Origin: an uncultured Bacilli bacterium
GTDB lineage: Bacteria > Bacillota_I > Bacilli_A > RF39 > UBA660
Assembly (NCBI GenBank): GCA_947585595.1
Contig: CANPXB010000003.1
Location: 20,301-84,300 of the forward strand
Length of the DNA stretch: 64,000 nucleotides
Direction: 5' to 3'
Part shown: positions 39,852-58,475 of the stretch, one piece after another
How positions within the stretch are numbered: position 1 is the first letter of the stretch
Layout of the letters: every line of letters starts with the position of its first letter
Program-made: the position numbers and the translations under genes
Notes under the pieces: generated by a model
Told to the model about the DNA's origin: nothing
The model's database searches: none
The model's input: the letters and a program-made list of their open reading frames with translations, nothing else

Positions 39852-39863
39852 GTTATATATACG
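39852..39863 (+). repeat. GTTATATATACG motif, copy 2 (here part of an extended -10, TGTTATATA)
   Basis: Identical to 24607-24618. Lies 24 nt upstream of the ATG at 39888. Confidence 0.5.
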
Positions 39864-39887
39864 AAAGTACTTTTAAGAGGTGATTTG

Positions 39888-40382: not shown

Positions 40383-41175
40383 TAAAACATTTACTTTCTA
40401 TGACAATTTAAAAACATCAGATAATTTAAAACAAAGAATTTTAAATAAGACAATTAACAAAAAAGAAACAAAGTTTAGAAGAATACCTAAATTAGCTTAT
40501 ACTATATCTCTTATTTTATTAGTATCATTTATTAGTTGTTCAATAGTATTTGCAGCTATCTACATGAGTACTACTACATTTAATAAAAGCATTGATGAAT
40601 ATGGCGATTATCATCAAGGAGTAGTTTTAAAAGATCCAGTCGAAATAAAAGATGATGGTACTTATGAAATTAGTCAAGGCATGACATTAGCAGATATTGA
40701 AAACGCCTTAGATATTCAATTTGCTGATAATATTGATAAAAGTAGTGTAGTGAATGAATGTGATATTAAAAGAAATGCTGATGGAAAAATAGAATCAGTT
40801 GAAATATTAATAGACGATTATGTTGATTATTCAGCAGAGAATAGCAAAAGAGAAGGATTTGATAGTAATAAAGATAATTATGAAGGATGGCTTAAAGGAA
40901 AACATCTAAGTTTATATATATCTTTTATGACTCCATATGCATCATCTGAAGTAAAAGAGAAATTCGGTAATTTGTATGATCATTATGCCACTTGTGTAGA
41001 AACAAAACCAATCGAAATAAAACTTAATAAAGTAAATGCTATAGCTTATTACTATAACCCATTTAATTCAAGACATAGTCTGCTTAATTATGCTTCTTTT
41101 ACCTACAATAATATTGCTTATTTTTACGATGGATATTTAGTAAGTAAAGAAGAGGTAATTGATGCTATCGAATAA
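40363..41175 (+). CDS. Putative anti-sigma factor (single TM, DUF4367-like C-terminal domain)
   Basis: 20-nt overlap with the sigma gene. One TM helix. The C-terminus ends in FTYNNIAYFYDGYLVSKEEVIDAIE. Confidence 0.6.
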   Translation: MTIMKSNKTFTFYDNLKTSDNLKQRILNKTINKKETKFRRIPKLAYTISLILLVSFISCSIVFAAIYMSTTTFNKSIDEYGDYHQGVVLKDPVEIKDDGTYEISQGMTLADIENALDIQFADNIDKSSVVNECDIKRNADGKIESVEILIDDYVDYSAENSKREGFDSNKDNYEGWLKGKHLSLYISFMTPYASSEVKEKFGNLYDHYATCVETKPIEIKLNKVNAIAYYYNPFNSRHSLLNYASFTYNNIAYFYDGYLVSKEEVIDAIE

Positions 41176-41243
41176 ATAAGCTTGTATAAATATTATTGTT
41201 GAAACATCTCAATAAACATTTACAACTACCATAAAAAACTTGA

Positions 41244-41267
41244 ATGGGGTAATAAATGGGGTTATAA
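41244..41267 (+). repeat. Tandem 12-bp repeat ATGGGGT(A/T)ATAA x2
   Basis: Read directly from the sequence. The G4 tract is conspicuous in an AT-rich intergenic region. Confidence 0.8.
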
Positions 41268-41345
41268 ATGTAATTAGAATTATAGTCTTGATTATAGGTA
41301 ATTCCTAGCTTCTTCTTATTTTTTGAAAACAAAGGATTTTAAAAA

Positions 41346-41369
41346 GTGGGGTTATAAGTGGGGTTATAA
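41346..41369 (+). repeat. Tandem 12-bp repeat GTGGGGTTATAA x2
   Basis: Read directly from the sequence. Same GGGGTTATAA core as 41244-41267, about 100 bp downstream. Confidence 0.8.
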
Positions 41370-41372
41370 AAG

Positions 41373-41441
41373 TCACGGAATGAATTTGTTAAATTTCACG
41401 GAATGAAAATGTCAAAACTCACGGAATAGAATTCAAAATTA
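41373..41441 (+). repeat. Three 23-bp-spaced direct repeats with core TCACGGAAT(G/A)(A/G)A
   Basis: Cores lie at 41373, 41396 and 41419, an exact 23-bp period. They abut the -35 element of the next promoter. Confidence 0.85.
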
Positions 41442-41460
41442 TGGGAAATTATGCTAAACT
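41432..41460 (+). promoter_or_regulatory. Sigma-A promoter with TG-extended -10
   Basis: -35 TTCAAA, 17-nt spacer, TGcTAAACT. Lies 31 nt upstream of the ATG at 41492. Confidence 0.5.
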
Positions 41461-41491
41461 TAAATTAGCAAGATATCAAAGAGGTGTTTAT

Positions 41492-42214
41492 ATGACATTT
41501 AATGGATATACTGAATTATATTTAGCTATTTCTTTCTGGTTATTTGGAATGGGTTTTTCTGTTTTTTGTATAATGTTAATTGCTATTACAATAGCTAATA
41601 GTTTTAAAAGAATAGAGATAAAAAATTATTTTAAAAATAATGTTATTAAATCTTCTAGTGATACCATAGATGGTAAAAAGAATATTTATATTGATGTAAC
41701 TAAAGGCGAATTAAAAGACTTTAATACTGATGATATTAATGCTTTAAAAAATTATTTCTATGACATCTTTTATAAGTTTGAAACCGCCTATAATAATTTA
41801 GATTATAATACAATGAAAATGCTTAGTACTAGTCAGATATATAATAACTATCATACTGGTATTAGTTTAGATTTAAAAGTAGGTAAGAAAAGAGTAATTA
41901 ATAATATTCAAAGAGTAAATGTTATATTATATGAAATAGATAGTACTATTTCTAAACAAGTAGCATCTCTTATGATTGAAGTATCTTATATTAACTATAC
42001 TTTAGATAAAAATGGTTATGTAATTAGTGGTAATAAAGAAACCCAAGTTAATGAAAAATTTGATATTACTTTTAGAAAAGACTTTGAAAGAAAACCAATT
42101 ACTAAATGTCCAAACTGTGGCGCTAATTTAGAAGGTAGTAAATGTTCTTATTGTGATAGTGTTATAAAAGATGTTGAATTTAAAATAAGTTCAATTAAAA
42201 GAATAATTGATTAG
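41492..42214 (+). CDS. Tim44-like domain membrane protein with a C-terminal zinc ribbon
   Basis: I prefer the ATG at 41492 (RBS AAAGAGGTG). N-terminal TM helix. Tim44/SnoaL-like pattern (FYKFETAYNNLDYNTMKMLST ... EKFDITFRKD). CPNCGA...CSYCDS. Confidence 0.55.
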   Translation: MTFNGYTELYLAISFWLFGMGFSVFCIMLIAITIANSFKRIEIKNYFKNNVIKSSSDTIDGKKNIYIDVTKGELKDFNTDDINALKNYFYDIFYKFETAYNNLDYNTMKMLSTSQIYNNYHTGISLDLKVGKKRVINNIQRVNVILYEIDSTISKQVASLMIEVSYINYTLDKNGYVISGNKETQVNEKFDITFRKDFERKPITKCPNCGANLEGSKCSYCDSVIKDVEFKISSIKRIID

Positions 42215-42294: not shown

Positions 42295-42729
42295 ATGAAA
42301 GACAAAGAAGAAAAAGATGTTTTAGATGAACTCAATAAAGGCGCTTGTATGGGGCGAGATGCTATCTACTTCATTTTAGAAAAAGTAACGGATAAAAAAT
42401 TAAGAGAAGTATTAGAAAAACAAGGTCAAAAATATAAAGAAATCTTAAGTAAAATAAGTAAGTTATATCCTGAGTATGCTAATAAAGAACCACATGAAAC
42501 TAGTACTATGAATAAAGTAATGACTTGGTATGGTATTGAAATGCGTACTATGATGGATGATAGTACCTCTAAAATAGCTGAACTACTATTACAAGGAACT
42601 AATATGGGTATTATTGAAGGAAGAAGATTACTAAATAACAATAATACTGAAAAAGATGTTCATAACTTATTAAAAGAATATGTTGATATGCAAGAAGATG
42701 CCGTTGAAAAACTAAAACAATTCTTATAA
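42295..42729 (+). CDS. Hypothetical helical-bundle protein
   Basis: RBS AAAGGAG. All-helical. Possibly a ferritin-like or DUF2383-like four-helix bundle, but this is not secure. Confidence 0.45.
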   Translation: MKDKEEKDVLDELNKGACMGRDAIYFILEKVTDKKLREVLEKQGQKYKEILSKISKLYPEYANKEPHETSTMNKVMTWYGIEMRTMMDDSTSKIAELLLQGTNMGIIEGRRLLNNNNTEKDVHNLLKEYVDMQEDAVEKLKQFL

Positions 42730-42754
42730 AAAGCTCACTCTATAGTGAGTTTTT
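42726..42754. repeat. 29-bp direct repeat, copy 1 (ATAAAAAGCTCACTCTATAGTGAGTTTTT); works as a hairpin terminator
   Basis: Identical to 43950-43978. Stem GCTCACT / AGTGAGT with flanking A5/T5 gives a bidirectional terminator. Confidence 0.9.
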
Positions 42755-42790
42755 ATTCTATTTCATATCCAGTAATTTATAAATTAAAAA

Positions 42791-43852
42791 TTATTTATTA
42801 ACACAAATCTTCTCGTTTATTGATTCATTACTTAACTCATTACTTTCTTTCATATCTATTAAAGTAGAATTATTAAAAATGTTTTCTATGTTATCATCAA
42901 AGCTTTTATATGTACTAAATTTAAATTTATATATCAAACCAGCCTTTAGATCATTAGAATTATTTATTCTTACAGTAGCAACTTCTCCTTTATTAGATTT
43001 TAAAGTAACATTAACAAAATCTTTATCATCAGTTTCTGCTATATTAGTAATATGATATGTTCTAGTAAAATAACATATATTGCTTTCTTCTTTACCACAG
43101 TAATTATTATTTAATAATTCAACCATATCTTTTTTTCCAAAATATACATCATAATTATCATCAATAGTATTACATACTATAACTTCATATTTGTTAGATT
43201 TATATATTTTTGTTCCACCATCCGACAATATATATCTTTCAATATTTCCATTCTTATATTGTAATTCTAAATAACTTTTCACATCATTCAGTTTTAATTG
43301 ATTGTATAGTAAAGCACTTTTTAAATCAAAATAATTATTATTTTCATCCATGATTTGTAATGAATCTATTCCATAAAACCATACTTTATATTTATCAGTA
43401 CTCAAAATTACATTACTTTTTGTTTCGGTAGAATCACTTTTAACTATGTTAAGATCAAAAATATTAATTTTAGGGAATTTTTGTTTATAATAAATAATTA
43501 ATAGAAATAATATAACGATTATAATAGTTATAAAAATCAATAAAATACTAATTATTTTATTCATCTTATGTTTTTCTTTTTCTTTAGTATTCATTGTATT
43601 TATAATAGCTTTTTCTACACTATCATTTTTTCTTTTAAGATCTGTTTTTTCACCATTAATTAGTTCTTCTATTGAAATATTTAAGATTTCACATAATGGT
43701 TTAAAAAAAGAAATATCAGGTAGTGTTTTACCATTTTCCCATCTACTAATTGATTTATTTGTTACACCTAATCTTTCAGCTAGTTCTTGTTGAGTTAGTT
43801 TTTGTTTCTTACGTGAACTTGCAATGAATTTTCCAATACGTTCTTGATCCAT
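42791..43852 (-). CDS. Membrane-tethered XRE-family transcriptional regulator
   Basis: N-terminal HTH (KLTQQELAERLGVTNKSISRWENGKTLPD), one TM helix (IISILLIFITIIIVILFLLIIY) and a ~230-aa extracytoplasmic domain. I prefer the ATG at 43852 (RBS AGGAG). Confidence 0.75.
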   Translation of the reverse strand: MDQERIGKFIASSRKKQKLTQQELAERLGVTNKSISRWENGKTLPDISFFKPLCEILNISIEELINGEKTDLKRKNDSVEKAIINTMNTKEKEKHKMNKIISILLIFITIIIVILFLLIIYYKQKFPKINIFDLNIVKSDSTETKSNVILSTDKYKVWFYGIDSLQIMDENNNYFDLKSALLYNQLKLNDVKSYLELQYKNGNIERYILSDGGTKIYKSNKYEVIVCNTIDDNYDVYFGKKDMVELLNNNYCGKEESNICYFTRTYHITNIAETDDKDFVNVTLKSNKGEVATVRINNSNDLKAGLIYKFKFSTYKSFDDNIENIFNNSTLIDMKESNELSNESINEKICVNK

Positions 43853-43949
43853 ATTTTGACTCCTCATAAACAAAATATATCATAAACAATTTAAAACTTA
43901 CAGGACAGAAACTGAGAATTATATAATTTATTTAATTTTAATATTTCAA

Positions 43950-43978
43950 ATAAAAAGCTCACTCTATAGTGAGTTTTT
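43950..43978. repeat. 29-bp direct repeat, copy 2
   Basis: Identical to 42726-42754. It lies in a divergent promoter region where a terminator has no obvious role. Confidence 0.9.
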
Positions 43979-45934: not shown

Positions 45935-48900
45935 ATGAATAAGAAGTATAAAATTGGTGTTGATATTGGTTCAACTACCGTTAAATTAGTCATAATGGAT
46001 CATCAAAATAAAATAATCCATAAAGCATATAAAAGACATTTATCTGATTCTAAAAAAACCATTATTGGTTTATTTAAAAATGCCTTAAAAAAGTTTGATA
46101 GTGATAGTAAATTTTCTTTAATTTTTACTGGTAGTGGTGCTATCTCTTTAGCCAAATATTTAAAAGTTCCTTTTATTCAAGAAGTTATTGCTTGTAAAAA
46201 TGCTATCACTACTTATGCTCCTTCAACTAATGTTGCTATTGAACTAGGTGGTGAAGATGCTAAAATCATTTATTTTGATCAAACTATTGAACAAAGAATG
46301 AATGGTTCTTGTGCTGGTGGTACTGGGGCTTTCTTAGACCAAATGGCTATCTTACTTAATACCACTACTTCTGGACTTAATGATTTAGCTAAAAAAGGTG
46401 ATACTATTTATCCAATCGCTTCTCGTTGTGGCGTATTTGCTAAAACGGATATTCAACCTTTATTAAATGAAGGATGTAAAAAAGAAGATGTCGCTTTATC
46501 TATCATGCAAGCTGTTGTTAATCAAACTATTAGTGGCTTAGCTTGTGGTAAACCAATTAAAGGTAATGTTATCTTCTTAGGTGGTCCATTAAACTATCTA
46601 TCGGTTTTAAAAGAACGCTTTATTAAAACATTAAACCTAACTAAAAATGAAGTAATCGCCCCTAAAGATGCTAATCTTTTCGTTTGTATGGGTGCTTGCT
46701 TAGATAATAGTAAAAGAAAATATTATTCTAAAGAAGATATCTTATCTTTACTTAAAGACTTAAAAGCTTTTAAAGAAGAAACATCTAGTAGCTTAGAACC
46801 TCTATTTAAAAATGATAAAGATTATCACTCTTTCTTAGAAAGACATAGTAAATATAAAGTAAAAAGAAAAGATATAACTAAATATAAAGGTGATGCCTTC
46901 CTAGGTATTGATGCTGGTTCAACTACTGCTAAATTAGTTTTGATTGATAAAGATGGTAACTTATTATATGAAGATTATCAAAGTAATAAAGGAACACCAG
47001 TTGATACTTTAAAAGATATGTTATGTAAATTATATCAAGTATTAAATAAAGATATTATTATCCGTAATGCTGGTTCTACTGGTTATGGTGAAATGTTAAT
47101 TAAAACCGCTTTTAACTTAGATATATCTGAAGTTGAAACTATCTCCCACTTTGAAGCGGCTAATTACTTCTTACCAGGTGTTGAAAGTATTATCGATATT
47201 GGTGGTCAAGATATGAAATATATCAAGATTAAAGATAACTCCGTAAATAGTATCATGCTTAATGAAGCCTGTTCATCTGGTTGTGGTTCATTTATTGAAA
47301 CTCTAGCTAAATCATTAGGTATGGATGTTAATGACTTTGTTCATCTAGCTATAACTTCTAAAAGTCCCATTGACTTAGGTTCTCGTTGTACCGTATTCAT
47401 GAATTCTAAAATTAAACAAACCCAAAAAGAAGGTCGACCTTTAGCCGATATCTTTGCTGGTTTAGCCTATTCTGTAATTAAAAATGCTATTACTAAAGTT
47501 ATGAAAATAAGAGATATTAGTACTTTAGGTAATAAAATAGTTGTTCAAGGTGGTACTTTCTTAAATGATGCCGTCTTAAGAGCTTTTGAAATCATAACTG
47601 GTAAAGAAGTTATAAGACCTGATATATCTGGTTTAATGGGTGCTTATGGTATTGCTTTAATTGCTTTAAATAATTACAAAGCTTATGAAGATAAAGATGT
47701 TGTTAGTTCTATTCTTACTTTAGATCAAATCAATAACTTAAAAATAAGAACTAATCATACTAGATGCCAAGGTTGTGAAAACCATTGTGCTTTAACTATC
47801 AATATGTTTGATAAAAAAGTCTTTATCTCTGGTAATCGTTGTGAAAAAGGTTCCGGTAATAATGGTAGTACTAATATGTTACCTAATATGTATGCTTGGA
47901 AATATGATCGTTTATTTAACTATGAACCATTAGAAAATCCAAAAAGAGGATTAATTGGTATTCCTCGTGTCTTAAATATGTATGAAGATTATCCACTATG
48001 GTTTACTATCTTTACTAACTTAGGTTTTAAAGTTGTTCTTTCCGATAACTCAAGTCGTAGTTTATATGAATCAGGTATTGAATCAATGCCAAGTGAATCA
48101 GTATGTTACCCCGCTAAATTAGTTCATGGCCATATTCTTAATTTAATTAAAAAAGGTGTTAAAACTATTTTCTATCCATGTATAATGTATGAACAAGATG
48201 AATTTGCTTCTTCTGATAATCACTATAATTGTCCTATTGTTCAAAGTTATTCAGAATCTATTAAATTAAACGTCGAAGACTTAGAAAAAAATAAAATAAA
48301 ATATTTAAATCCTTTCTTACCTTTAGAAGAAGATAAACTGGTTAAAAGATTTATGGAATTACCTGAGTTTAAAGAATATCATTTTACTTTAAAAGAAGTA
48401 AAAAATGCTATTCATGAAGGATTCTTAGAACTAAGTAATTATAAAAATGAAGTAAGAGCTAAAGGTGAAGAATTTATTAAATTCGTTAATGATCATAATG
48501 AAAAAGCTATTGTCTTAGCTGGTCGTCCATATCATTTAGATAAAGAAGTTAACCATGGTATAGATACGATGATAAATAGTTTAGGTTTAGCTGTTCTTAC
48601 TGAAGATTCTATCTGTCATTTAAGTCGTATTAAATCTAAATTAAGAGTTGTTGACCAATGGTCATATCATTCACGTGTTTATAATGCTGCTGATGTAGTT
48701 AGTCAGTATCCTAATCTAGAATTAGTCGAACTTAATTCCTTTGGCTGTGGTTTAGATGCCATTGTTACCGATCAAACTGAAGAAATCTTAAAAGCTAATA
48801 ATCGTTTATATACCACAATTAAAATAGATGAAATAAATAATTTAGGTGCTGTTAAAATCCGTATTAGATCATTAATAGCCTCGATGAATAAACGTCTTAA

Positions 48901-50155
48901 TGATAACAATTATCATCCTTACTCATATACCAAAAACTATTTTAAAAAAGAACAAAAAAATAATACAATTTTATTCCCTGATATGTCACCTAATCACATG
49001 CCTATCTTTGAAAGTTTATTAAGAAGTGAAGGCTATAATGCGGTATATCTAAGTAAGACAACTGATAAAACTGTTGAAACTGGTTTAAAATATGTTAATA
49101 ATGATGCTTGTTATCCCGCTATTATTGTTATTGGTGAACTAATATCAGCATTACAAAGTGGTAAATATGATTTAGATAAAACAACAGTTATGATTACTCA
49201 AACTGGTGGTGGATGTCGTGCTACTAATTATATTGGTTTAATTAGAAAAGCTTTAAAAGACGCCGGTTTAGAAAAAGTATCAATTATCTCTTTAAATGCT
49301 TCTGGTCTCGAAAAAGAACAAGCCTTTAAATTTAATTTATCTTTTATTAACAAAGCTGCTCAAGCTGTTGTCTATGGTGATTTACTAGCTAAAATGTTAT
49401 ATGCCTCTCGTCCATATGAAGTTAAAAAAGGTAGTAGTGAAAAACTATATCATAAATGGTTAAAAATCGTTTGTAAATCTATTCAAAATGGTAATATTAT
49501 TGAATATAAACGTAATATTAAAAATATAATTAATGATTTTAAAAACTTAGAAGTCAAAGTAACTAATAAACCTAAAGTAGGTATAGTTGGAGAAATCTTA
49601 GTTAAATATCATAACTTTGCTAATGATAATTTAGTCTTAAAGTTAGAAAATGAAGGTGCTGAAGTCTTTGCTCCTGACTTAATGGGCTTTGTTAAATACT
49701 GTGTCTATAATGGTATTGTTAAAGAAAAATTATTAAAACTAAGTAAGTTTGGTTCTTTCGTTCGTAAGAAATTATTACAAATAATTGATTTATATGAAAA
49801 ACCAGTTAAAAAAGAATTAAAAGATACGCGATATCGTTCTACTACTGATATTTATAAATTAGCTAGTAATGTCGAAGGTATCATATCTACTGGTAATCAA
49901 ACTGGTGAAGGTTGGTTCCTAACCGCTGAAATGGTTGAATTAATTAAAGATGGTATTCCAAATATCGTTTGTGTCCAACCATTCGCCTGTCTGCCTAATC
50001 ATATAGTTGGTAAAAGTGTTATTAAGAAAATTAGATCATTATACAAAGATTCTAATATCGTTGCTATCGATTATGATCCCGGAGCTAGTCATACTAACCA
50101 AGTTAATCGTCTTAAATTAATGCTTACGGTTGCTAAAGAAAATATTAAGAAATAA
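45935..50155 (+). CDS. Acyl-CoA dehydratase activase-related fusion protein (two BadF/BadG/BcrA/BcrD ATPase domains plus DUF2229-type domains)
   Basis: Two actin-fold ATPase starts (GVDIGSTTVKLV, GIDAGSTTAKLV). Cys cluster CQGCENHC...GNRCEKG. A long C-terminal region is typical of the ~1400-aa CoA-enzyme-activase fusions of Clostridia. Confidence 0.8.
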   Translation: MNKKYKIGVDIGSTTVKLVIMDHQNKIIHKAYKRHLSDSKKTIIGLFKNALKKFDSDSKFSLIFTGSGAISLAKYLKVPFIQEVIACKNAITTYAPSTNVAIELGGEDAKIIYFDQTIEQRMNGSCAGGTGAFLDQMAILLNTTTSGLNDLAKKGDTIYPIASRCGVFAKTDIQPLLNEGCKKEDVALSIMQAVVNQTISGLACGKPIKGNVIFLGGPLNYLSVLKERFIKTLNLTKNEVIAPKDANLFVCMGACLDNSKRKYYSKEDILSLLKDLKAFKEETSSSLEPLFKNDKDYHSFLERHSKYKVKRKDITKYKGDAFLGIDAGSTTAKLVLIDKDGNLLYEDYQSNKGTPVDTLKDMLCKLYQVLNKDIIIRNAGSTGYGEMLIKTAFNLDISEVETISHFEAANYFLPGVESIIDIGGQDMKYIKIKDNSVNSIMLNEACSSGCGSFIETLAKSLGMDVNDFVHLAITSKSPIDLGSRCTVFMNSKIKQTQKEGRPLADIFAGLAYSVIKNAITKVMKIRDISTLGNKIVVQGGTFLNDAVLRAFEIITGKEVIRPDISGLMGAYGIALIALNNYKAYEDKDVVSSILTLDQINNLKIRTNHTRCQGCENHCALTINMFDKKVFISGNRCEKGSGNNGSTNMLPNMYAWKYDRLFNYEPLENPKRGLIGIPRVLNMYEDYPLWFTIFTNLGFKVVLSDNSSRSLYESGIESMPSESVCYPAKLVHGHILNLIKKGVKTIFYPCIMYEQDEFASSDNHYNCPIVQSYSESIKLNVEDLEKNKIKYLNPFLPLEEDKLVKRFMELPEFKEYHFTLKEVKNAIHEGFLELSNYKNEVRAKGEEFIKFVNDHNEKAIVLAGRPYHLDKEVNHGIDTMINSLGLAVLTEDSICHLSRIKSKLRVVDQWSYHSRVYNAADVVSQYPNLELVELNSFGCGLDAIVTDQTEEILKANNRLYTTIKIDEINNLGAVKIRIRSLIASMNKRLNDNNYHPYSYTKNYFKKEQKNNTILFPDMSPNHMPIFESLLRSEGYNAVYLSKTTDKTVETGLKYVNNDACYPAIIVIGELISALQSGKYDLDKTTVMITQTGGGCRATNYIGLIRKALKDAGLEKVSIISLNASGLEKEQAFKFNLSFINKAAQAVVYGDLLAKMLYASRPYEVKKGSSEKLYHKWLKIVCKSIQNGNIIEYKRNIKNIINDFKNLEVKVTNKPKVGIVGEILVKYHNFANDNLVLKLENEGAEVFAPDLMGFVKYCVYNGIVKEKLLKLSKFGSFVRKKLLQIIDLYEKPVKKELKDTRYRSTTDIYKLASNVEGIISTGNQTGEGWFLTAEMVELIKDGIPNIVCVQPFACLPNHIVGKSVIKKIRSLYKDSNIVAIDYDPGASHTNQVNRLKLMLTVAKENIKK

Positions 50156-50173
50156 CTCTTAATATTTTTTCTT
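50139..50173. repeat. 35-bp direct repeat, copy 1 (AAAATATTAAGAAATAACTCTTAATATTTTTTCTT); putative attL
   Basis: Contains the last codons and stop of the activase gene plus its terminator hairpin AATATTAAGA / TCTTAATATT. Identical to 56771-56805. Confidence 0.9.
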
Positions 50174-50210
50174 GTATAAAAATAAAGGCAAATCATATCA
50201 TTTTGAATCA

Positions 50211-50227
50211 TTCACAAAATTTGTGAA
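50211..50227. repeat. Perfect palindrome TTCACAAA-A-TTTGTGAA
   Basis: 8-1-8 inverted repeat about 40 bp inside the left island boundary. Confidence 0.8.
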
Positions 50228-50290
50228 CCATAAAGTAAATATTATATTCCCAATTTTTGAGAGTGACATTATATTAGAGTTAATCTAAAA

Positions 50291-50328
50291 TTGAACTAGA
50301 AATTATAAATTGAACTAGAAATTATAAA
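50291..50328 (+). repeat. Perfect tandem duplication of the 19-mer TTGAACTAGAAATTATAAA
   Basis: Copies lie at 50291-50309 and 50310-50328, ending 5 nt before RBS GAAAGGAGG of the 50346 gene. Confidence 0.9.
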
Positions 50329-50345
50329 AAGAAAGGAGGTTTATC

Positions 50346-50795
50346 ATGAAAAAAAGTAAAAAAATAATGTTTGCTCTAATATCCATAGTTGCATCATTAT
50401 CTATCGTGTATGCTTCTGTTAATGCAACATATTTGATAAATAGAACAGGAACACTATCTAATGTAGTTAACGGAAATACGACAAGTAGAAACAAAATTGA
50501 AGGTGAAGCAACATTCAAAACTCCAGTGATGGCACAAATGAGAGATGTCAACAGTGTTACTGGGAAAAACTCTGAGGGTGGAATAAGAGTAAAAACAATT
50601 GCTAAAAAAACCAATCTAGGAATTGTGACAAGCACAAAGGAAATGTATATACCAGTGCACCAAACAACAACCAATTCTATAACTGCAACATTTACTTATA
50701 ATACAAGTAGTAACAAATTAAAAATTACATGGGAAGATTGGACAGGAAACACAAGCTTTAATGCAAAGTTCGTAGCTTATAACATGAATGATTAA
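50346..50795 (+). CDS. Small secreted Thr/Asn-rich protein, function unknown
   Basis: Strong RBS GAAAGGAGG. Signal peptide ending SIVYA-SV. Beta-rich mature part. Confidence 0.6.
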   Translation: MKKSKKIMFALISIVASLSIVYASVNATYLINRTGTLSNVVNGNTTSRNKIEGEATFKTPVMAQMRDVNSVTGKNSEGGIRVKTIAKKTNLGIVTSTKEMYIPVHQTTTNSITATFTYNTSSNKLKITWEDWTGNTSFNAKFVAYNMND

Positions 50796-50833
50796 TTAAG
50801 AACAGTGCTTTTAAGTAAGCATTGTTCTTAATT
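50794..50833 (+). terminator. Long-stem hairpin terminator
   Basis: 17-bp stem AATTAAGAACAGTGCTT / AAGCATTGTTCTTAATT with one G-U pair. The downstream U-tract is weak. Confidence 0.6.
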
Positions 50834-50874
50834 ATTATTATGTAAATAAACAATAGAATACGAGGTAATAAAAA

Positions 50875-51726
50875 TTGAAAAAATTTTTAATAATATTAAG
50901 TTATTTTATAATACTAATTTTAACCAACTTTTTAGTTAGGAATGAATATGATAAAATTCAAAACGATACTTCAGCTTTAATTATATATGGGGAAGAAAAT
51001 CATCAAGATTTATTAGAAAACACAAAAGGTATATCATCTTTTCGTCGTTCTCTATCTTTTTCTTCAGGACAAGATAATGATATTATATATACTCCAGAAC
51101 TTGTAAATAATTCAGACGGGAGTACGTCCTATAAAGAAAACCATGATGATGAAAAATTAAATTGGAATTATTTTTATGATAATGATAATAAAAAAATAAT
51201 TCTTACTTATAAAGCATCAACTTGTAACATGGATTTAGCTAAAGATGAAGTAGCAATTTTATTATATGAACAAAATTATAATAAAGAGAAATTACCTAAT
51301 TTTTTAAATAAAGAAATAACATTTAAGTATAATGAAAAATTAATACCTTTAAAAATTAAACAAATAACAAATTTAACAATTTATCCACATATTTGCATAT
51401 CAGATGAATTATATGATGAATTAATAAAAACCGAAAAAAGTTTTATATATGATATAGAATGTGATAACTATAACGCTTATAAAAAAATAAAATATAACTG
51501 GCAAGATTTAGAAAATAATAGTTATTATGAAATTTCAAATCCCGCAGTCAATTTAACAGTCGAAATATCAAATAAAATAAGCTTTTTAGGAGATTTGATA
51601 GAATATATTCAAATCTTAAACATAGTGTCAGTAATTATTATTTTTGTTTTATTTGTAAACATGATTATAAAATCATTACAAAGGCGCCTAAATAAAGAAA
51701 TAGGAGATACAACATGGGAAAAATAA
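50875..51726 (+). CDS. Truncated FtsX/MacB-type permease paralogue (TM1, periplasmic-type domain and TM2 only)
   Basis: TTG start after RBS CGAGGTA. Collinear with the first ~285 aa of 53640-54758 (KLNWN, FKYN, ICISD, FIYDIE, W..LENN). It ends at RRLNKEIG, where FtsX proteins carry the REIGxLKxxG helix. Confidence 0.5.
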   Translation: MKKFLIILSYFIILILTNFLVRNEYDKIQNDTSALIIYGEENHQDLLENTKGISSFRRSLSFSSGQDNDIIYTPELVNNSDGSTSYKENHDDEKLNWNYFYDNDNKKIILTYKASTCNMDLAKDEVAILLYEQNYNKEKLPNFLNKEITFKYNEKLIPLKIKQITNLTIYPHICISDELYDELIKTEKSFIYDIECDNYNAYKKIKYNWQDLENNSYYEISNPAVNLTVEISNKISFLGDLIEYIQILNIVSVIIIFVLFVNMIIKSLQRRLNKEIGDTTWEK

Positions 51727-52400
51727 TAGAATTAAAAAATATTAAGAAAGAATATAAAACTAATAAGGAAAAAATAGAGGTTTTAAAAGGTATAAATTAT
51801 ACATTTGAAAAGGGAAAACTTTATGCAATAAAAGGACATAGTGGTAGCGGTAAAACCACATTAGTTCAAATATTAGGCTTAATGACTAACGCAACAACAG
51901 GAGAATATTTAATATATAATAAAAATACAAATAAATTAACAGATAAAGAAGCATCCTTTTATCGAATGAAATATATTGGTTTTGTTTTTCAGGACTATAA
52001 TTTAAATCCCTACCTAAAAGCATTTGAAAATGTAACACTACCAATGTTAATAAATAAAGAAATACCCGCATCAGAAAGAAAAAATCACGCTTATGAATTA
52101 TTAGAACTCGTAGATTTGTTTGAACGTAAAGAACACTTCCCTAAAGAACTATCCGGCGGTGAACAACAGCGTATTGCTATAGCAAGATCATTAGCCAATA
52201 ATCCTGATATTATAATTGCCGATGAACCAACTGGTAATTTAGATAAAAAAAACGAAAAGATAATTTTTAGTTTATTGAAAACACTATCTCAAAACGATAA
52301 ATGTGTTATAGTTGTTAGTCATAGTGATGAAATTACTTCATATGCAGATGTTAATCTATTACTAGAAGACGGTTTATTAAAAGAGGTAAAAAAATGCTAA
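51714..52400 (+). CDS. ABC transporter ATP-binding protein (MacB/LolD/FtsE type)
   Basis: Walker A GHSGSGKTT, Q-loop, signature LSGGEQQR, Walker B IIIADEPTGNLD. 13-nt overlap with the upstream gene. Confidence 0.9.
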   Translation: MGKIIELKNIKKEYKTNKEKIEVLKGINYTFEKGKLYAIKGHSGSGKTTLVQILGLMTNATTGEYLIYNKNTNKLTDKEASFYRMKYIGFVFQDYNLNPYLKAFENVTLPMLINKEIPASERKNHAYELLELVDLFERKEHFPKELSGGEQQRIAIARSLANNPDIIIADEPTGNLDKKNEKIIFSLLKTLSQNDKCVIVVSHSDEITSYADVNLLLEDGLLKEVKKC

Positions 52401-53638
52401 AAGAATTTATCAAATACTCTCTTAAAGAAATAAAGAGAAATAAAAAAAATAAAATATTAATTATTATTTTCTCTTTATTATTTTTTCTATTATTTATTGA
52501 TATCATTATTATTAAAAATTTTTACGATTATTATGATTACGCTATTAATACAAATATTGGTTTTAGAACCTTAAATGTGTATTATAATTCTAATACTAAA
52601 AAAGAAGCTATAGCAGAATTAGAAAGTATTGAACATGTTAGTGAAGTCTATGAAGGTATATACAAAGAAACTGCCGTTCAAACAGATATAACAGACAATG
52701 GTTCAAATGGTTGGATAGGATTTATTTACGGAAGTAAAAATACTGCTCCAATCTCCATTAAAGGGAAAAATATAGATGAATTATTACCAGGAGAAATTAT
52801 ATGCCCATACGAATTTTATCCTGATTCTAACTACGACAATCCACTAAATATTGATGAAAGCAAATTTTTATCTGAAAAAGAAACTTTAAATAGGAATATA
52901 ATTGTAAAATATAATTCATACAAGTCCAACATTGTAAATGGTGAACTTATTGAAGATCAAGAAGAGCAAGTTAAAAACATGAAAATAGTTGGATTGTATG
53001 ATGAAAGTATTTTTAAAAATGGTATAAATGTATGTTATGCTACTTTTACTGATATAAAAGATATAGTCGACGCTTATAATCCTCCGATAGAAGACAGTAG
53101 CTATTACCCACTTCACATTGTTGTTGATGAAGAAAAAAATGTTAAAGAAGTTTATAAAAATATTCAACGCCTAAAGAAATATGAAATTAACGAAGAAACT
53201 ATCGCCTGTTTAGATAAAGGGTTTGTAAGTGTATTATTTTCAGTAACCCTTATCTTTGCTATGACAATAATAATTTCCTTTTTAATTATATTGAAAAATT
53301 ATATAACTAAAAAAATAAAAAGTGAATCCAAAAACTTAGGAATATTGAGAGCATGTGGTTATACAGAAAACCAGGTAATCATAAAAGAAGTTTTAGAAAA
53401 TAGTATTGTTCAATTGATTAGTTTCATAATAAGTGCTTCTTTATTTTCGACATTATTTTTACTTTTAGAAGAAAGGATATTTAAATACTTTAAATATATA
53501 GGATTTAACATTAATAATAATTTGGCTACTTTAATTATAACTTTTGTATTCATTCTAATTATTTCAGAAATAATAAATTATTATTCAGTTAGAAAAAAAA
53601 TAAATAATCTGATATCTAATATATTAAAGGAAGATTAA
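52394..53638 (+). CDS. FtsX-family ABC permease
   Basis: TM1, then a ~250-aa extracytoplasmic domain, then three TM helices with KNLGILRACGY. 7-nt overlap with the ATPase gene. Confidence 0.75.
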   Translation: MLKEFIKYSLKEIKRNKKNKILIIIFSLLFFLLFIDIIIIKNFYDYYDYAINTNIGFRTLNVYYNSNTKKEAIAELESIEHVSEVYEGIYKETAVQTDITDNGSNGWIGFIYGSKNTAPISIKGKNIDELLPGEIICPYEFYPDSNYDNPLNIDESKFLSEKETLNRNIIVKYNSYKSNIVNGELIEDQEEQVKNMKIVGLYDESIFKNGINVCYATFTDIKDIVDAYNPPIEDSSYYPLHIVVDEEKNVKEVYKNIQRLKKYEINEETIACLDKGFVSVLFSVTLIFAMTIIISFLIILKNYITKKIKSESKNLGILRACGYTENQVIIKEVLENSIVQLISFIISASLFSTLFLLLEERIFKYFKYIGFNINNNLATLIITFVFILIISEIINYYSVRKKINNLISNILKED

Positions 53639-53639
53639 A

Positions 53640-54758
53640 ATGATTTTATTAAAAAGCTTTCTTAGAAAGAAAAAAACAAATATTTATCTTAAAATATTTA
53701 CTACAATAACTATTATTATATTATTGTTAAATAGTATAAGTAGTTATATTACTTATGAACAAGATAAATTAAATCATGATACAACATCTTTAGTATTATT
53801 CGCTAAAGAAAATCATGATGATATGTTGGAAAAAGAAGATAAAATAAAATCTTATAGAAATGCTTTAGGCTTTGAAATAGGTATAGATAATGACATAATC
53901 TATAATCCAAATATTATAATGAATGGTACTTCTGTAGAATACGAAGACATAATAGATGAAACAAAACTCAATTGGAATTCTTTATTATATAATAATGTCA
54001 TATTGACTTTTTCATCAAAATCTTGTGGAACATCTTTGAATGATAATGAAACTATACTATATCTTTCCAAAGAAAATTATAATGAAAATTATCTAAATAA
54101 ATATTTAAATCAGAAAATAAATTTTAAATATAATAATCAAGAAATATCACTAATTATAAAAAATATTTTAGAGCCAAAAACATTTAATTATATATGTATT
54201 TCTGATAAATTATTTAATAATCTTGTTAAGGAAAATCAAAAATTTATTTATGATATAGAAACAAAAGACTATAAAGCTTTAGAAAATCTTAAGAAAAAAT
54301 GGGCAAATTTAGAAAATAATGACTTTTTCAATATCGAAACTCAAACTTTTTATAAAACAACAGAATCTAATGATAGAATTAATATATTAAACAAAATGGC
54401 TAATATACTTATCATCGCTAATTTTATTTCTTTATTTATCTATTTTTTAATATTAATATTTGTTTCAACAGACTTAATATCTGATGAAGAAAATAATATG
54501 ATATTACTTAAACAAATTGGTTATAACAAATTACAGAATATGTTTAACTTATTAAAGAATGTATTTGTTTTAAATATTATTTCATTATCACTTTCTTTAA
54601 TAATTTATAAATTTATTATATTTATCTTAAATATAATGTTTAAGATAAATTTAAACGTGCTAAATTATAAATTCATATTTTTATATTTGAGTTTTGTTAT
54701 TATAGTCGAATATATAGTTTTAATAATATACACTAAAAATATTGATGATTTAAATTAA
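53640..54758 (+). CDS. FtsX-family ABC permease, second type (full-length paralogue of 50875-51726)
   Basis: TM1, extracytoplasmic domain, three TM helices with LLKQIGYNKLQ. The start lies 1 nt after the upstream stop. Confidence 0.7.
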   Translation: MILLKSFLRKKKTNIYLKIFTTITIIILLLNSISSYITYEQDKLNHDTTSLVLFAKENHDDMLEKEDKIKSYRNALGFEIGIDNDIIYNPNIIMNGTSVEYEDIIDETKLNWNSLLYNNVILTFSSKSCGTSLNDNETILYLSKENYNENYLNKYLNQKINFKYNNQEISLIIKNILEPKTFNYICISDKLFNNLVKENQKFIYDIETKDYKALENLKKKWANLENNDFFNIETQTFYKTTESNDRINILNKMANILIIANFISLFIYFLILIFVSTDLISDEENNMILLKQIGYNKLQNMFNLLKNVFVLNIISLSLSLIIYKFIIFILNIMFKINLNVLNYKFIFLYLSFVIIVEYIVLIIYTKNIDDLN

Positions 54759-54875
54759 ACATATTTAATAAATAATTTTACTTTTTCTCTGTTTATTTGT
54801 TACAACTACAAAAGTTAAAAGCGATAATCTTTAATAATATTTATTTGTGTGATAGACTATACTTGGTGGTAGTTT

Positions 54876-55970
54876 ATGAGTGATGAAAAAAGAGGAAAAT
54901 TTTTACAAGAATTAAGATTAGAAAAAAAACTAACTCAAAAGCAACTAAGTGAGATATTACATTACTCTGATAACGCTGTCTCAAATTGGGAAAAAGGGAA
55001 AACCTTGCCAAACAATCCAGAGACTTTAATGAAATTATGTGGACTATATGATGTAAGTATCGAAGAATTGTTGTATGGAGAGAAAAAAAACAAAAATAAT
55101 TCCAAAAATATTTCTGATAATATGGAAAACATTTATAAAAAGAACTATAAAAAAATAAAAAAAGCTTTAAGTCTTTCTGCAATACTATTTTTAATAATAA
55201 TAATTATTTCTTTACTTTCTATATATTTCATATTTATTAAAGGAAAAATTTTATCATATACGATCCAAGGAGATAGTGAGCATTTTATAATTGATAAGTC
55301 TACAATATTATTTACTGAAAATATTGATATACTAAATTTTAATAAGATTATTTCAAAAAATGGCGAAGAAATAAACTATATAAAACTATATTATAAAATT
55401 GATGATAAAGAATATCTAATATTTCAAGGCCCAAATGATAACTACTATATCGAGGAACCAAAAGGCTATAATGAATATAATTTAGATTCTCTTAAAAACA
55501 ACGAAATCTTTATAGAGATTAGCTATAATGAATCTTCACAAGAAACAATAAACTTGACTTTATCTCAAAGATATATAAATGATGATATTTTTATTCATAA
55601 AAAAGAAGAAATTTATGACGATAGTATTTCAAAAAATAAAAGAACTACAAATAATGACTTTATAGAATTTTTATTAAATGAAGGCTTTACTTTGAAAGAT
55701 GGAGAATATGAAAAACAGTCTGAAAAAGTAAGAATTGTATTTGATTCACAAAGCAATATAATATATTTGTTTAATCAATCAAAAAGTATTTATGAGAAAT
55801 TAGAATTAGATATAAGTAGAAATAATATCTTTTATGAATTTCTTGATGAAAACAACGATAATTATATTTCAGAAATATATCCATTAGATGGCAAGGAACT
55901 AAAAATCTGCAAAATTGAATTTATTACAGAAAATATAGAATATTTATTGTATTTAAAATCTAAGTTTTAA
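54876..55970 (+). CDS. Membrane-tethered XRE-family transcriptional regulator
   Basis: HTH (KLTQKQLSEILHYSDNAVSNWEKGKTLPN), one TM helix (LSLSAILFLIIIIISLLSIYFIFI) and a ~230-aa extracytoplasmic domain. Confidence 0.75.
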   Translation: MSDEKRGKFLQELRLEKKLTQKQLSEILHYSDNAVSNWEKGKTLPNNPETLMKLCGLYDVSIEELLYGEKKNKNNSKNISDNMENIYKKNYKKIKKALSLSAILFLIIIIISLLSIYFIFIKGKILSYTIQGDSEHFIIDKSTILFTENIDILNFNKIISKNGEEINYIKLYYKIDDKEYLIFQGPNDNYYIEEPKGYNEYNLDSLKNNEIFIEISYNESSQETINLTLSQRYINDDIFIHKKEEIYDDSISKNKRTTNNDFIEFLLNEGFTLKDGEYEKQSEKVRIVFDSQSNIIYLFNQSKSIYEKLELDISRNNIFYEFLDENNDNYISEIYPLDGKELKICKIEFITENIEYLLYLKSKF

Positions 55971-56039
55971 TCATTCTCATTTTTTGAGAGTGATTTTTTC
56001 GACTTTTCCTGTTATCCTTTTTTCTAAGAAAGGAGAATT

Positions 56040-56750
56040 ATGATGAAAAAATTATTATTGTTATTCTTATTAATGTTTTTTAGTATCAGTCATGTCTTTG
56101 CAAAGAATATTCAAACATATTCTGGCATAGAAATAGAAGAAAATAAATACTACAGTCTAGTAGAAATATATGGAGACAATTATATCAATTTTATAACTGA
56201 AGATGAATATAAATTAATAAATAATGATTTATCAACAGTTACTAAAGTTGAATATGACGAAGAATCACTTGACGCCATTAGACCTCTTACGTCTTTTAGT
56301 ACTAGTTATAAAACTATTTCCTTAATCAGTAATAATAATGTTATAACAGCTCGATTAAAATGGAAACAAAATCCTAAAATAAGAAGCTATGACGTTTTTG
56401 GCATAAGACTGCATGGATTAACTTTAGGAAGAATAATATCTTTTAAGCAATTCTATACAGAAAACGGAGAAACTAAATATAGTACAAGTACAACACAGAA
56501 GACATTTAATAATGGATTTGGTGAATCATTTTTATTATCGAATAAATCGGATTTAGAAACCGTTGTAACATTTACTGTTAATGGTTCTGGGAAAGTATTT
56601 GCTTCATATCAACATGCAACAACCAATGTATCTTTAAGTGATAGTACTAACTATTCTTTATCAGAACTAGGATTAGGGAATGTAATACAATTTAATAATG
56701 GAATTGCTGAGAAATATGATAGAATGCCTGGTATAAATATCAGTATATAA
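56040..56750 (+). CDS. Secreted protein, function unknown
   Basis: RBS AAAGGAG. Signal peptide ending HVFA-KN. Beta-rich. Confidence 0.55.
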   Translation: MMKKLLLLFLLMFFSISHVFAKNIQTYSGIEIEENKYYSLVEIYGDNYINFITEDEYKLINNDLSTVTKVEYDEESLDAIRPLTSFSTSYKTISLISNNNVITARLKWKQNPKIRSYDVFGIRLHGLTLGRIISFKQFYTENGETKYSTSTTQKTFNNGFGESFLLSNKSDLETVVTFTVNGSGKVFASYQHATTNVSLSDSTNYSLSELGLGNVIQFNNGIAEKYDRMPGINISI

Positions 56751-56770
56751 TTAAATTTTGAACTTTCAAT

Positions 56771-56805
56771 AAAATATTAAGAAATAACTCTTAATATTTT
56801 TTCTT
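56771..56805. repeat. 35-bp direct repeat, copy 2; putative attR and terminator of the last island gene
   Basis: Identical to 50139-50173. Non-coding at this location. Confidence 0.9.
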
Positions 56806-56852: not shown

Positions 56853-58475
56853 ATGCAAACAATATATATCTTTGGTCATAAAATGCCTGATACTGATACC
56901 GTCTGTGCTAGTATTAGTTTATCTTATTTAAAAAATAAACAAGGTTTAACTACTGAACCTCGTGTTTTAGGTACGCTTAATAAAGAAACTAAATTTGTTT
57001 TAGATTATTTTCATATTCCAGAACCAGAATTCTTAAATGATGTTAAAGTTCAAGTAAGAAATATGCATTATAATAAGGAAGCGATGATAGAAGAACATCT
57101 ATCTGTTTATGAAGCTTATAAAGAAATGGTTGAATATGAAGTAACTGGTTTTCCTTTAGTTAATAAGCATAAAAAACTAACTGGTTATGTTAATGTTAAA
57201 GAAATATCTAAATTCTTAATTGATGGTGATATAACTTATTTAAATACTTCATATGATAATATTTTAAAAACTTTAAATGGTACAGCTATTACTCGTTTTG
57301 ATGATGAAATCGAAGGTCATATCTTAGCTGCCGCTTATAAAAGTGAAACATTCATAAATCGTGTTCAATTAAATAAAGATAGTATTTTAATCGTTGGTGA
57401 TCGTTATAAAATCTTAGAATATGCTATTAATTCTGGTATAAAATTATTAATCTGTGTTAATGGTAGTAATATTCCAAGTGACCTAGTTAATCTAGCTAAC
57501 CAAAATAAAGTTAATGTTATTAGTGTTCCTTTAGGTACTTATAAATGTGCTAATATGTTAAAACTATGTAACTATGTTAAACTACTTAATATTAATCCTC
57601 ATCCAATTACTTTTAGTCCAATCGATTATCGTGATGACTTTATTGATATTAGTAGTAAATTAGGTCATACTAACTACCCAGTAGTTAATAAAAAAGGTAT
57701 TTGTGTCGGTATGATGCGTTTAGTAGATGCTAATAACTTTGAACGTAAACAAGTTATCTTAGTTGATCATAATCAACAATCTCAAAGTGTTGATGGTATT
57801 GAAGAAGCTTCTATCTTAGAAGTAATAGATCATCATAACTTAGGTACTATTGGTACATCTATCCCTATTAATTTTCGTAGTATGCCAGTAGGTTGTACTT
57901 GTACAATAATTTATCAATTATATAAAGAAGCTAATATCCCAATACCTCCAAATATTGCTGGTATTATGTTATCAGCTATTTTATCAGATACTTTATTATT
58001 TAAATCACCAACTACTACAGATATTGATATCGAAGTAGGTAATAAATTAGCTGAAATAGCTCATTTAGATATAAATGAATATGGTATGCAAATGTTTAAA
58101 GCAGCTTCAACAGTTAGTGAACTTAGTGTATATGATATTATTCATACTGATATGAAAACATTCAAATATGATGATTCTAATATAGCTATCAGTCAAGTAA
58201 TGACTTTAGATTTTGATGATATTCATGAAAGAGCTGAAGATGTTATTACTGAACTTAATAATATGTGTGAATATGGTGGTTTAAAAATAGCTTTATTATT
58301 TGTAACTGATGTTATTCGTAATGGTTCATACTTATTCTATAATGAAAAGAGTAAAGACTTACTAGAAGATGCTTATGGTATAGATGAATTATATCAAGGA
58401 TTATATTTTGATGGTGTCGTCTCTCGTAAGAAACAGATGTTACCTCCATTATTAGAAAGTGAAGATAGAAGATAA
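56853..58475 (+). CDS. ppaC: Family II (Mn-dependent) inorganic pyrophosphatase with a CBS/DRTGG regulatory insert
   Basis: DHH domain motifs GHKMPDTDT, VDHN and IDHHN. DHHA2 motif SDTLLFKSPTTT. A ~240-aa insert after residue ~60 and the 540-aa length are typical of CBS-PPases. Confidence 0.9.
   Translation: MQTIYIFGHKMPDTDTVCASISLSYLKNKQGLTTEPRVLGTLNKETKFVLDYFHIPEPEFLNDVKVQVRNMHYNKEAMIEEHLSVYEAYKEMVEYEVTGFPLVNKHKKLTGYVNVKEISKFLIDGDITYLNTSYDNILKTLNGTAITRFDDEIEGHILAAAYKSETFINRVQLNKDSILIVGDRYKILEYAINSGIKLLICVNGSNIPSDLVNLANQNKVNVISVPLGTYKCANMLKLCNYVKLLNINPHPITFSPIDYRDDFIDISSKLGHTNYPVVNKKGICVGMMRLVDANNFERKQVILVDHNQQSQSVDGIEEASILEVIDHHNLGTIGTSIPINFRSMPVGCTCTIIYQLYKEANIPIPPNIAGIMLSAILSDTLLFKSPTTTDIDIEVGNKLAEIAHLDINEYGMQMFKAASTVSELSVYDIIHTDMKTFKYDDSNIAISQVMTLDFDDIHERAEDVITELNNMCEYGGLKIALLFVTDVIRNGSYLFYNEKSKDLLEDAYGIDELYQGLYFDGVVSRKKQMLPPLLESEDRR

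Follow-up and report, generated by a model that had tools for sequence, protein, structure and literature searches.

We analysed a 64,000-nt stretch of DNA (the window, to which all positions without a locus label refer) from an uncultured rabbit-gut bacterium of the Bacilli with about 27% GC, together with comparison loci that were fetched from other assemblies and are numbered L001, L002 and so on. The relatives of this organism are metagenome-assembled genomes from rabbit gut ("Lapin") and from other gut samples. Between a gene of the CoA-enzyme activase family and ppaC, which encodes an inorganic pyrophosphatase, the window contains an accessory island of seven open reading frames (ORFs), named i1 to i7, and this island is enclosed by two copies of a perfect 35-bp direct repeat (Table 1). 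Comparison with relatives showed that the segment is a clean 6,632-bp insertion that duplicated its target, which is the 3' end of the activase gene and its terminator.

Table 1. Features of the island, its borders and the neighbouring one-gene insert (positions in the window; R, repeat; XRE, regulator family; HTH, helix-turn-helix)
Feature	Position	Strand	Basis or remark
Target gene, CoA-enzyme activase family, 1406 aa	45935..50155	+	ORF list; Pfam: two BcrAD_BadFG ATPase domains and DUF2229
Repeat copy 1 (R)	50139..50173	+	activase end (..NIKK, stop) plus intrinsic terminator
Island-specific DNA, 6,597 bp (6,632 bp including one repeat)	50174..56770	+	missing from L001, L002, L199-L202
Perfect tandem duplication of the 19-nt unit ATTGAACTAGAAATTATAA (twice)	50290..50327	+	directly 5' of the i1 ribosome-binding site
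i1, 149 aa, N-terminal signal-like hydrophobic segment	50346..50795	+	no family match
Hairpin 3' of i1, 18-bp stem	50793..50834	+	
i2, 283-aa membrane protein, two hydrophobic segments flanking a large loop	50875..51726	+	
i3, LolD/MacB/FtsE-type ABC ATPase	51714..52400	+	Pfam ABC_tran 7e-31
i4, FtsX/MacB-type permease, four hydrophobic segments, large loop following the first	52394..53638	+	Pfam FtsX 1.2e-8
i5, 372-aa second permease-like protein, four-segment topology as i4	53640..54758	+	no family match
i6, 364-aa XRE-family HTH protein, one membrane segment (residues 92-128), C-terminal domain of ~235 aa	54876..55970	+	Pfam HTH_3 1e-11
i7, 236-aa secreted protein	56040..56750	+	signal-peptide-like N-terminus
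Repeat copy 2 (R)	56771..56805	+	non-coding; terminator-like hairpin 3' of i7, directly before the ppaC promoter region
Right flank, ppaC, CBS/DRTGG-type DHH-DHHA2 inorganic pyrophosphatase	56853..58475	+	Pfam
1.2-kb insert, one gene (360-aa membrane XRE protein, 42791-43873, - strand)	42726..43978		perfect 29-bp direct repeat ATAAAAAGCTCACTCTATAGTGAGTTTTT at 42726-42754 and 43950-43978

The 35-mer, AAAATATTAAGAAATAACTCTTAATATTTTTTCTT, occurs exactly twice in the window, as the initial annotation of this DNA had reported. No further copy was found in the window even when 3 mismatches were allowed, and 100 shuffles gave 0 matches. The activase ORF (..ENIKK, stop) has its last 17 nt inside copy 1, and the terminator in this copy is composed of the stem AAAATATTAAGA / TCTTAATATTTT, the loop AATAAC and a T run. 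The predicted fold of the 35 bp (12-bp stem, 6-nt loop, T run) showed -9.5 to -12.5 kcal/mol with z of about -4.4. Copy 2 is located 20 nt past the i7 stop codon and 47 nt ahead of the ppaC start codon. The ORFs and the fold bear out the earlier description of copy 1 as the end of the activase gene with its hairpin terminator and of copy 2 as non-coding sequence. The initial annotation had also considered that the 35-mer might be a common dispersed repeat. The 35-mer is not a dispersed repeat: of the 198 loci fetched, among them the homologous islands L090-L097, L101-L106 and L193-L198, only the activase-ppaC locus contains its 24-nt core. Exact searches gave no hit to the complete 35-mer in GTDB species representatives and none to a degenerate 30-nt core in IMG/VR and JGI metagenomes. 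The island borders carry neither a tRNA nor an Rfam element. ARAGORN placed a 'tRNA-Stop (tta)' at 47630-47727 within the activase coding sequence, which is almost certainly a false positive in AT-rich DNA.

The unoccupied site that had been predicted for relatives, consisting of the activase gene, a single 35-mer and ppaC, is present in L001, L002, L199, L200, L201 and L202, the last four of which are independent assemblies of the L002 species. In terms of amino acid identity to the window, L001 showed 97.5% in the activase and 95% in ppaC, and L002 showed 92% and 90%. In blastn comparisons with these relatives, the alignment ends at 50173 and restarts at 56772, and the coordinates on the relatives' side overlap by exactly 35 bp. 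A tree from DNA identities of ppaC and of the 3' end of the activase gene has the form ((window species, L001), L002/L199), (L009/L203), L003. On this tree a gain in the window lineage is the most parsimonious history, because it requires one gain against two losses. The two repeat copies are identical at 35 of 35 positions, and both have C at the last base of the loop, a variable position that is T in L001 and L002 and A in L203, while the flanks have diverged by about 9% from L001 (identity 91.1% and 90.3% on the two sides). Considering that the copies are identical and share a lineage-specific base despite this divergence of the flanks, the duplication took place after the split from L001, unless the copies are homogenised by gene conversion. 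A look-up of the ppaC protein of the window gave no record. A search with the activase C-terminus returned mostly distant Clostridia, and L010-L012 have other genes downstream and are uninformative for the site. In more distant relatives the activase gene itself is missing. As a separate observation, the single repeat copy of L001 (9905-9953) contains an 11-bp internal tandem duplication within the hairpin (TTAAGAAATAA twice), which could be slippage or a footprint.

None of the seven island ORFs matched an integrase, recombinase, relaxase or transposase family in Pfam or NCBIfam, which agrees with the initial annotation. Recombinase families were likewise absent from the 29 ORFs scanned in the island and its surroundings, where the window represents 64 kb of the genome. 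An IS30-family DDE transposase was found neither in the island nor in the window, and remnants of insertion sequences (IS) were not found in the island. The island also showed no terminal inverted repeats, its best end-to-end alignment being no better than shuffles (p ~0.7), and the same search for terminal inverted repeats and IS remnants was negative in the other repeat-bounded inserts described below.

The accessory character that had been assigned to the seven genes agrees with their family matches and topology: they encode secreted proteins, a MacB-like ABC system and a membrane XRE regulator. The impression of an AT-rich island holds weakly in overall composition, with 23.3% GC against 26.9% in the rest of the window (3.6 points; the lowest 0.5% of 6.6-kb windows). 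It does not extend to GC at third codon positions (GC3), which is 0.13-0.23 in the island genes and 0.08-0.17 in core genes and is thus not lower in the island. The deficit is located at codon positions 1 and 2. Accordingly, the low GC of the island reflects the amino acid make-up of membrane proteins, and the idea of a foreign origin deduced from composition was rejected because of the host-like GC3. Homologous clusters with the same gene order and 40-77% amino acid identity were found at other loci of the same uncultured Bacilli clade, namely homologues of i2 to i7 in L091, homologues of i1 to i4 plus a second cassette in L090, and others in L092 and L094-L097. From these clusters we concluded that the genes belong to a clade-native, fast-evolving cassette family. 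Their homologies thus point to a clade-native cargo rather than a foreign integrase-borne element. A direct repeat flanking the homologous island of L091 as a whole was looked for and not found. In more distant relatives (L101-L106, L193-L198), the i6-i7 pair also occurs with a different ABC pair, beside a TraG/VirD4 fragment or phage-like genes. Between two of these, L102 and L196, the island homologue with the other ABC pair and i6-i7 is 87.7% identical, while the flanking LysM block is 73.5% identical and inverted relative to the island; this pattern suggests horizontal exchange or inversion of that island.

Several other inserts in the window and in the relatives are bounded by repeats, and those of 29, 24, ~33 and ~160 bp are duplications of other gene ends or terminators. 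The 29-bp repeat around the 1.2-kb insert of the window is the stop codon and terminator of an upstream 144-aa gene, and L001 has one copy of it and no insert. The 360-aa XRE protein encoded by this insert has an HTH that is 44% identical to that of i6. An A run precedes the hairpin of the 29-bp repeat and a T run follows it, and this hairpin could therefore also terminate the oppositely transcribed XRE gene. In L009, the interval between ppaC and a short-chain dehydrogenase/reductase gene holds a 3.6-kb cassette (5698-9341), whose products are an ABC ATPase, an FtsX permease, an i5-like protein and a secreted protein of 148 aa. The cassette is bounded by a 24-bp repeat, in which the last 7 ppaC codons and the stop codon are followed by the left arm of the native hairpin and its loop; a new hairpin for the left copy of ppaC is provided by the insert, and every other relative is empty at this place. 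A 441-bp insert in L005 is placed between two diverged copies of a terminator (~33 bp) that is single in L004. L090 has two tandem paralogous cassettes, each following an imperfect repeat of ~160 bp that holds a terminator and regulatory region. Between the i6 and i7 homologues of L091, a 1.6-kb insert (13724-15367) with a 438-aa ORF on the opposite strand and no Pfam match is bounded by 25-bp direct repeats that contain the palindrome TTTTTTGCAAAAAA, and no empty site is available for comparison. Two of the repeat-bounded inserts are single genes, of 0.44 and 1.2 kb. The 35-, 29-, 24- and ~33-bp duplications each contain all or part of a terminator hairpin. Since the local sequence differs from one repeat pair to the next, a single att-specific integrase cannot account for all of them.

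The activase-ppaC site itself has received more than one insertion. The sister species represented by L009 and L203 has a different cassette of the same family there, which is about 70% identical to the window island in DNA, while the flanks are about 87% identical. The junction of this cassette comes straight after the hairpin's T run, and a second copy of the repeat is missing. In L203 (9490-9960), the cassette has decayed to a 156-aa fusion ORF made of an i2-like N-terminal part and parts of an i5-like gene, which is probably a deletion remnant of the L009-type cassette formed by recombination between paralogous genes. Accordingly, the site between the upstream genes and ppaC has at least four alleles, which are the empty site, the window type, the L009 type and the L203 remnant. 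Moreover, L207, from the same species as L203, carries an IS30-family element at ~825-2331 with a 390-aa transposase (NCBIfam NF033563, 105.7 bits against a cut-off of 80). The element is located between the activase hairpin and the cassette, having landed in the right arm and T run of that hairpin. Comparison with L203 showed that TTAATATTTTTTTA (right arm plus T run) was duplicated, which amounts to 14 bp if perfect or to 17 bp if one mismatch is allowed. A predicted transposase that targets this hairpin and duplicates its target is therefore present in the clade. An 11-nt match, GCAAATCATAT, between the left end of the island and this IS is at chance level. L206 contains the same IS30 element with a different left flank, on the SpoIIP side, and this difference indicates that the element is multi-copy or that the region has been rearranged.

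In other samples of the window species (99.1-99.7% identity), the island is present in four SPAdes assemblies. L099, L107 and L108 cross both junctions and are identical to the window there, and L204 begins inside the island and continues into ppaC. The final graph of SPAdes uses k-mers longer than the 35-bp repeat, and for this reason the integrated structure is not an assembly artefact. One contig showed a different arrangement. L100, a contig of 5.7 kb that a k=31 (Logan) assembly yielded for run ERR10663716, matches the island with 99.4-99.6% identity and has the order i4'-i5-i6-i7, one repeat (3551-3590), i1-i2-i3'. Its repeat is 40 bp, consisting of TAAAG followed by the 35-mer, and its flank on the i7 side, TTTTCATAAAG, differs from the TTTCAAT of every integrated copy. 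Because the repeat and the left flank differ from the integrated copies, we consider that L100 comes from a distinct strain. The other k=31 contigs, L109, L110 and L209, end within the repeat, which is the behaviour expected of an integrated copy. Where low coverage loses the chromosomal branches, a repeat that exceeds k=31 can also give a chimeric path. The join in L100 is thus suggestive only, and may represent a circle, a tandem copy or a chimeric or otherwise artefactual path. In the L100 strain, TAAAG is common to the island end and to the activase sequence just ahead of the repeat, and this shared motif is what a microhomology-mediated junction would look like.

Insertions of this form have precedents. 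[quoted passage not shown] Furuta et al. (2010) described insertions with a long target duplication, without a mobility gene and with the mechanism left unexplained (PMC2853133). In two of their Haemophilus influenzae cases, the overlap between the 46-bp repeats and the 3' end of the upstream gene is 15 bp in one and 2 bp in the other (PMC2853133); at the activase gene it is 17 nt. The published cases were screened for, and carry, restriction-modification (RM) genes, and the authors link the event to DNA breakage by those enzymes (PMC2853133). Like the members of that class, the island is an indel relative to a close genome, is shorter than 20 kb, has a unique target of more than 30 bp duplicated so that both repeats align to the single target, and contains no transposase, integrase or other mobile element. 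Unlike the published cases, in which both a restriction and a modification gene were required, its cargo is an ABC exporter, a regulator and secreted proteins, its ORFs have no restriction or methyltransferase domains in Pfam or NCBIfam, and its target is a terminator hairpin. The insertion belongs to the same rearrangement class as the RM insertions with long target duplication, with different cargo.

In terms of enzymology, IS1630 (Calcutt et al. 1999) offers a comparison. According to the passages on it in PMC2853133 and PMC3317919, this IS30-type element of Mycoplasma fermentans duplicates inverted repeats of variable sequence over 16-26 bp. On the one hand, both IS1630 and the island show a duplicated target inverted repeat of variable length and sequence, and the host of IS1630 is a low-GC, wall-less relative of the clade. 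On the other hand, the island has no transposase, IS ends or terminal inverted repeats, and its duplication is longer; the L207 transposase is likened to IS1630 at the level of the IS30 family only. IS1630-type transposition is the closest known enzymology for the duplication of a terminator.

Based on these results, the explanation that we favour, with moderate confidence, is that the island is a non-autonomous accessory cluster that arrived by a terminator-targeted insertion with long target duplication and was joined by a trans-acting activity rather than by an att-specific integrase. In the lineage of the window species, the cluster inserted exactly at the intrinsic terminator of the activase gene, and the duplicated target comprises 35 bp (40 bp in one strain) with the last codons, the stop codon, the whole hairpin and part of the T run. 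The target-duplicating event may have been aimed at the hairpin, with the enzyme acting in trans. Two routes can be envisaged. Staggered breaks could be made on either side of the inverted repeat and then filled in, as by transposases of the IS30/IS1630 type, or replication could stall at the hairpin and the template could be switched out and back through microhomology. After insertion, copy 1 would still terminate the activase transcript, and copy 2 would terminate the last island gene and insulate ppaC. Because the terminators would be kept and ppaC insulated, the insertion would be nearly neutral for its neighbours. Subsequent recombination between the two copies could lead to loss, amplification or circularisation of the island. 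An order of events in which the terminator was first duplicated in tandem and the insert then landed at random between the copies was rejected, since clean junctions at copy boundaries would be rare and are needed in four cases.

Four points weigh against the terminator-targeted insertion. We infer the mechanism from its end products only. The duplication of 35-40 bp exceeds the 16-26 bp of IS1630 (PMC2853133, PMC3317919) and the 14-17 bp of the local IS30 element. A tyrosine-recombinase core site has the same layout as the 12-6-12 inverted repeat, and a trans-acting recombinase is compatible with the 64 kb seen. Finally, some inserts have no long repeat, namely a 1.4-kb insert in L001, two segments of the window at 24.6-26.0 kb and 31.8-33.0 kb, and the L009-type cassette at the activase site.

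The initial annotation had read the two copies as attL and attR of a decayed or trans-mobilisable (CIME-like) element, or else as the product of an insertion mechanism that targets terminators. In the first of these, an attP carrying the 35-mer would have recombined with the 3' end of the activase gene, and the integrase would have been lost or would be encoded elsewhere. We consider this unlikely. The direct repeats do rebuild the 3' end of the target and the empty site does hold a single copy, the 12-6-12 symmetry resembles a recombinase core site, in L100 i7 runs into i1 across one repeat copy as expected for an excised circle, and the distant i6-i7 clusters adjoin a TraG/VirD4 fragment or phage-like genes. 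However, the island has no integrase, and the repeat is missing from all the homologous islands fetched and from the genome, viral and metagenome collections searched. At least three or four other nearby inserts, two of them single genes, use different duplicated terminators, so that several integrases would be needed in very small genomes. In addition, the cassette that the sister lineage carries at the site is a different one and lacks a repeat at its right end. CIMEs, pseudo-SCC (staphylococcal cassette chromosome) elements and Xer-dependent IMEXs (integrative mobile elements exploiting Xer) are integrase-less, att-flanked elements that use a known sequence-specific recombinase and a recurrent shared att site. 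The island is like them in that its repeats rebuild the 3' end of a gene, it has no recombinase of its own and mobilisation in trans is possible, and unlike them in that its repeat occurs at this locus only and that other sequences serve in the neighbouring events. From the attL/attR proposal, therefore, the insertion, the target duplication and the empty site stand; a site-specific recombinase is not supported, since the repeat is unique and the nearby events use other sequences. Between the two alternatives of the initial annotation, a terminator-targeting mechanism fits the data better, and the CIME-like element is less supported.

Integron cassettes provide a further comparison. The island repeats are whole duplicated targets, whereas integron attC sites are cassette-specific. 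No integrase family was present in the scanned ORFs and there was no Rfam match in 40-60 kb, although no integron-directed test was made. Both XRE proteins matched the VC1465 Xer-activation-factor family of NCBIfam with 18 and 25 bits (cut-off 70), which we attributed to generic HTH similarity.

A history of homologous recombination only seems to us quite improbable. Here the arrangement would have arisen once elsewhere and come to the site by transformation and a double crossover, or by a Campbell-type single crossover of a circle with one repeat, and the repeats would be uninformative on the acquisition at this site. Several samples of the species show the island fixed, with the same junctions, and the site behaves as a replacement hot spot with at least four alleles, where distant relatives have no activase gene; both observations are compatible with such spread. 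A parallel exists in T4-type phages, in which, according to Arbiol et al. (2010), promoter/stem-loop cassettes (PeSLs) are dispersed similar sequences that recombine by homology, so that genes are shuffled as promoter/terminator cassettes and mini-circles are formed (PMC2839356). As in the island, short terminator-containing repeats flank accessory genes, and PeSL recombination is described there as giving insertions, deletions and small circles without a dedicated recombinase (PMC2839356). Unlike PeSLs, each repeat pair in this clade is a local duplication of a unique target. Homologous spread leaves the origin of the duplication unexplained, and a target-duplicating event would still be needed. 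Moreover, no donor lineage with the island was found outside the species, and the even identity of the two flanks to L001 shows no imported tract.

That the island is ancestral, and that L001 and L002 lost it by precise deletion between the repeat copies, is very improbable in our view. Deletion between 35-bp direct repeats would leave exactly one copy, as at the empty sites, the 11-bp tandem duplication of L001 indicates that slippage occurs at the hairpin, and the outgroup L009/L203 has a cassette of the same family at the site. Against this, two independent losses would replace one gain, the copies are identical and share a lineage-specific loop base despite the diverged flanks, and the outgroup cassette, with its lower identity than the flanks and its other junctions, is not the same insertion. 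An assembly artefact, in which a separate circular element sharing the 35-mer was threaded into the chromosome path, is hardly conceivable: the circular permutation of the k=31 contig L100 is what such an element would give, but SPAdes assemblies from independent samples run through the junctions and the three other k=31 contigs break inside the repeat as for an integrated copy.

Returning to terminator-targeted insertion, a broader form of it would be a clade-wide pathway, which we offer tentatively and regard as doubtful. In such a pathway, cassettes without a transposase would be inserted at intrinsic terminators, with the hairpin and the last codons copied on both sides, by an IS30/IS1630-like catalyst that acts in trans without IS ends or by template switching, and the duplicated terminators would let them leave as circles, of which the L100 junction could be a trace, and move on, giving an integron-like cassette economy with terminators as landing pads. 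For insertions with long target duplication and no mobility gene, the mechanism has been open since they were described for RM genes, and the activase-ppaC locus is a clean case without RM genes. Its empty sites are exact, the one site has several alleles, several sister events lie at neighbouring terminators, and an IS30-family element has struck this hairpin too. Should a single activity account for all of this, it would reveal how very small genomes that have no obvious integrases swap accessory operons while neighbouring transcription is undisturbed. Otherwise, the annotation is still corrected to a clade-native cassette at a terminator.

In terms of cargo, i2 to i5 are predicted to form an ABC exporter of the MacB/FtsX type, with i3 as the ATPase, i4 and i5 as permeases and i2 as a partner. 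The genes include a LolD/MacB-type ATPase and a permease with four membrane segments and a large extracytoplasmic loop, which are the defining parts of such exporters. The i3 protein matched the LolD-like family of NCBIfam at 3.6e-64, under the equivalog cut-off. The i2 protein and the N-terminal two thirds of i5 are paralogous (repeat families D1 and D4), and a homologue of i1 (61%) stands at the head of a cassette in L090. The hairpin 3' of i1 looks like an internal terminator, so that i1 would be its own transcription unit, and the 19-nt tandem duplication upstream of i1 may be a putative operator, perhaps for the XRE regulator of the island. The AlphaFold model of i7 (pLDDT 78) is mostly a beta-sandwich and showed a weak resemblance to adhesin ligand-binding domains (best 2okm, E 3e-4, TM-score 0.32/0.47). 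Sequence searches of i5 and i7 against the PDB gave no match, and no relative of the i7 family was found in IMG/VR.

Other variable segments were observed in the window and in a more distant genus. Two genes for ECF-type (extracytoplasmic function) sigma factors, at 24600-25980 and 39400-41600, are each followed by a gene of ~270 aa, and these segments differ from the closest relatives; they are variable regulatory pairs and have no long repeats at their flanks. GC is lowest in the window at 32998-34588 (16-19%), a region also present in L114. Two ORFs lie there on the - strand, one of 371 aa and 15.9% GC that weakly matches signal-peptidase S26 and one of 164 aa that weakly matches DUF7507. 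In L131, two inserts of ~2.4-2.5 kb (2295-4803 and 13358-15749) that are not in L124 and L125 are probably copies of one mobile element in the more distant genus, because both end in ATTCTATACAAAAG.

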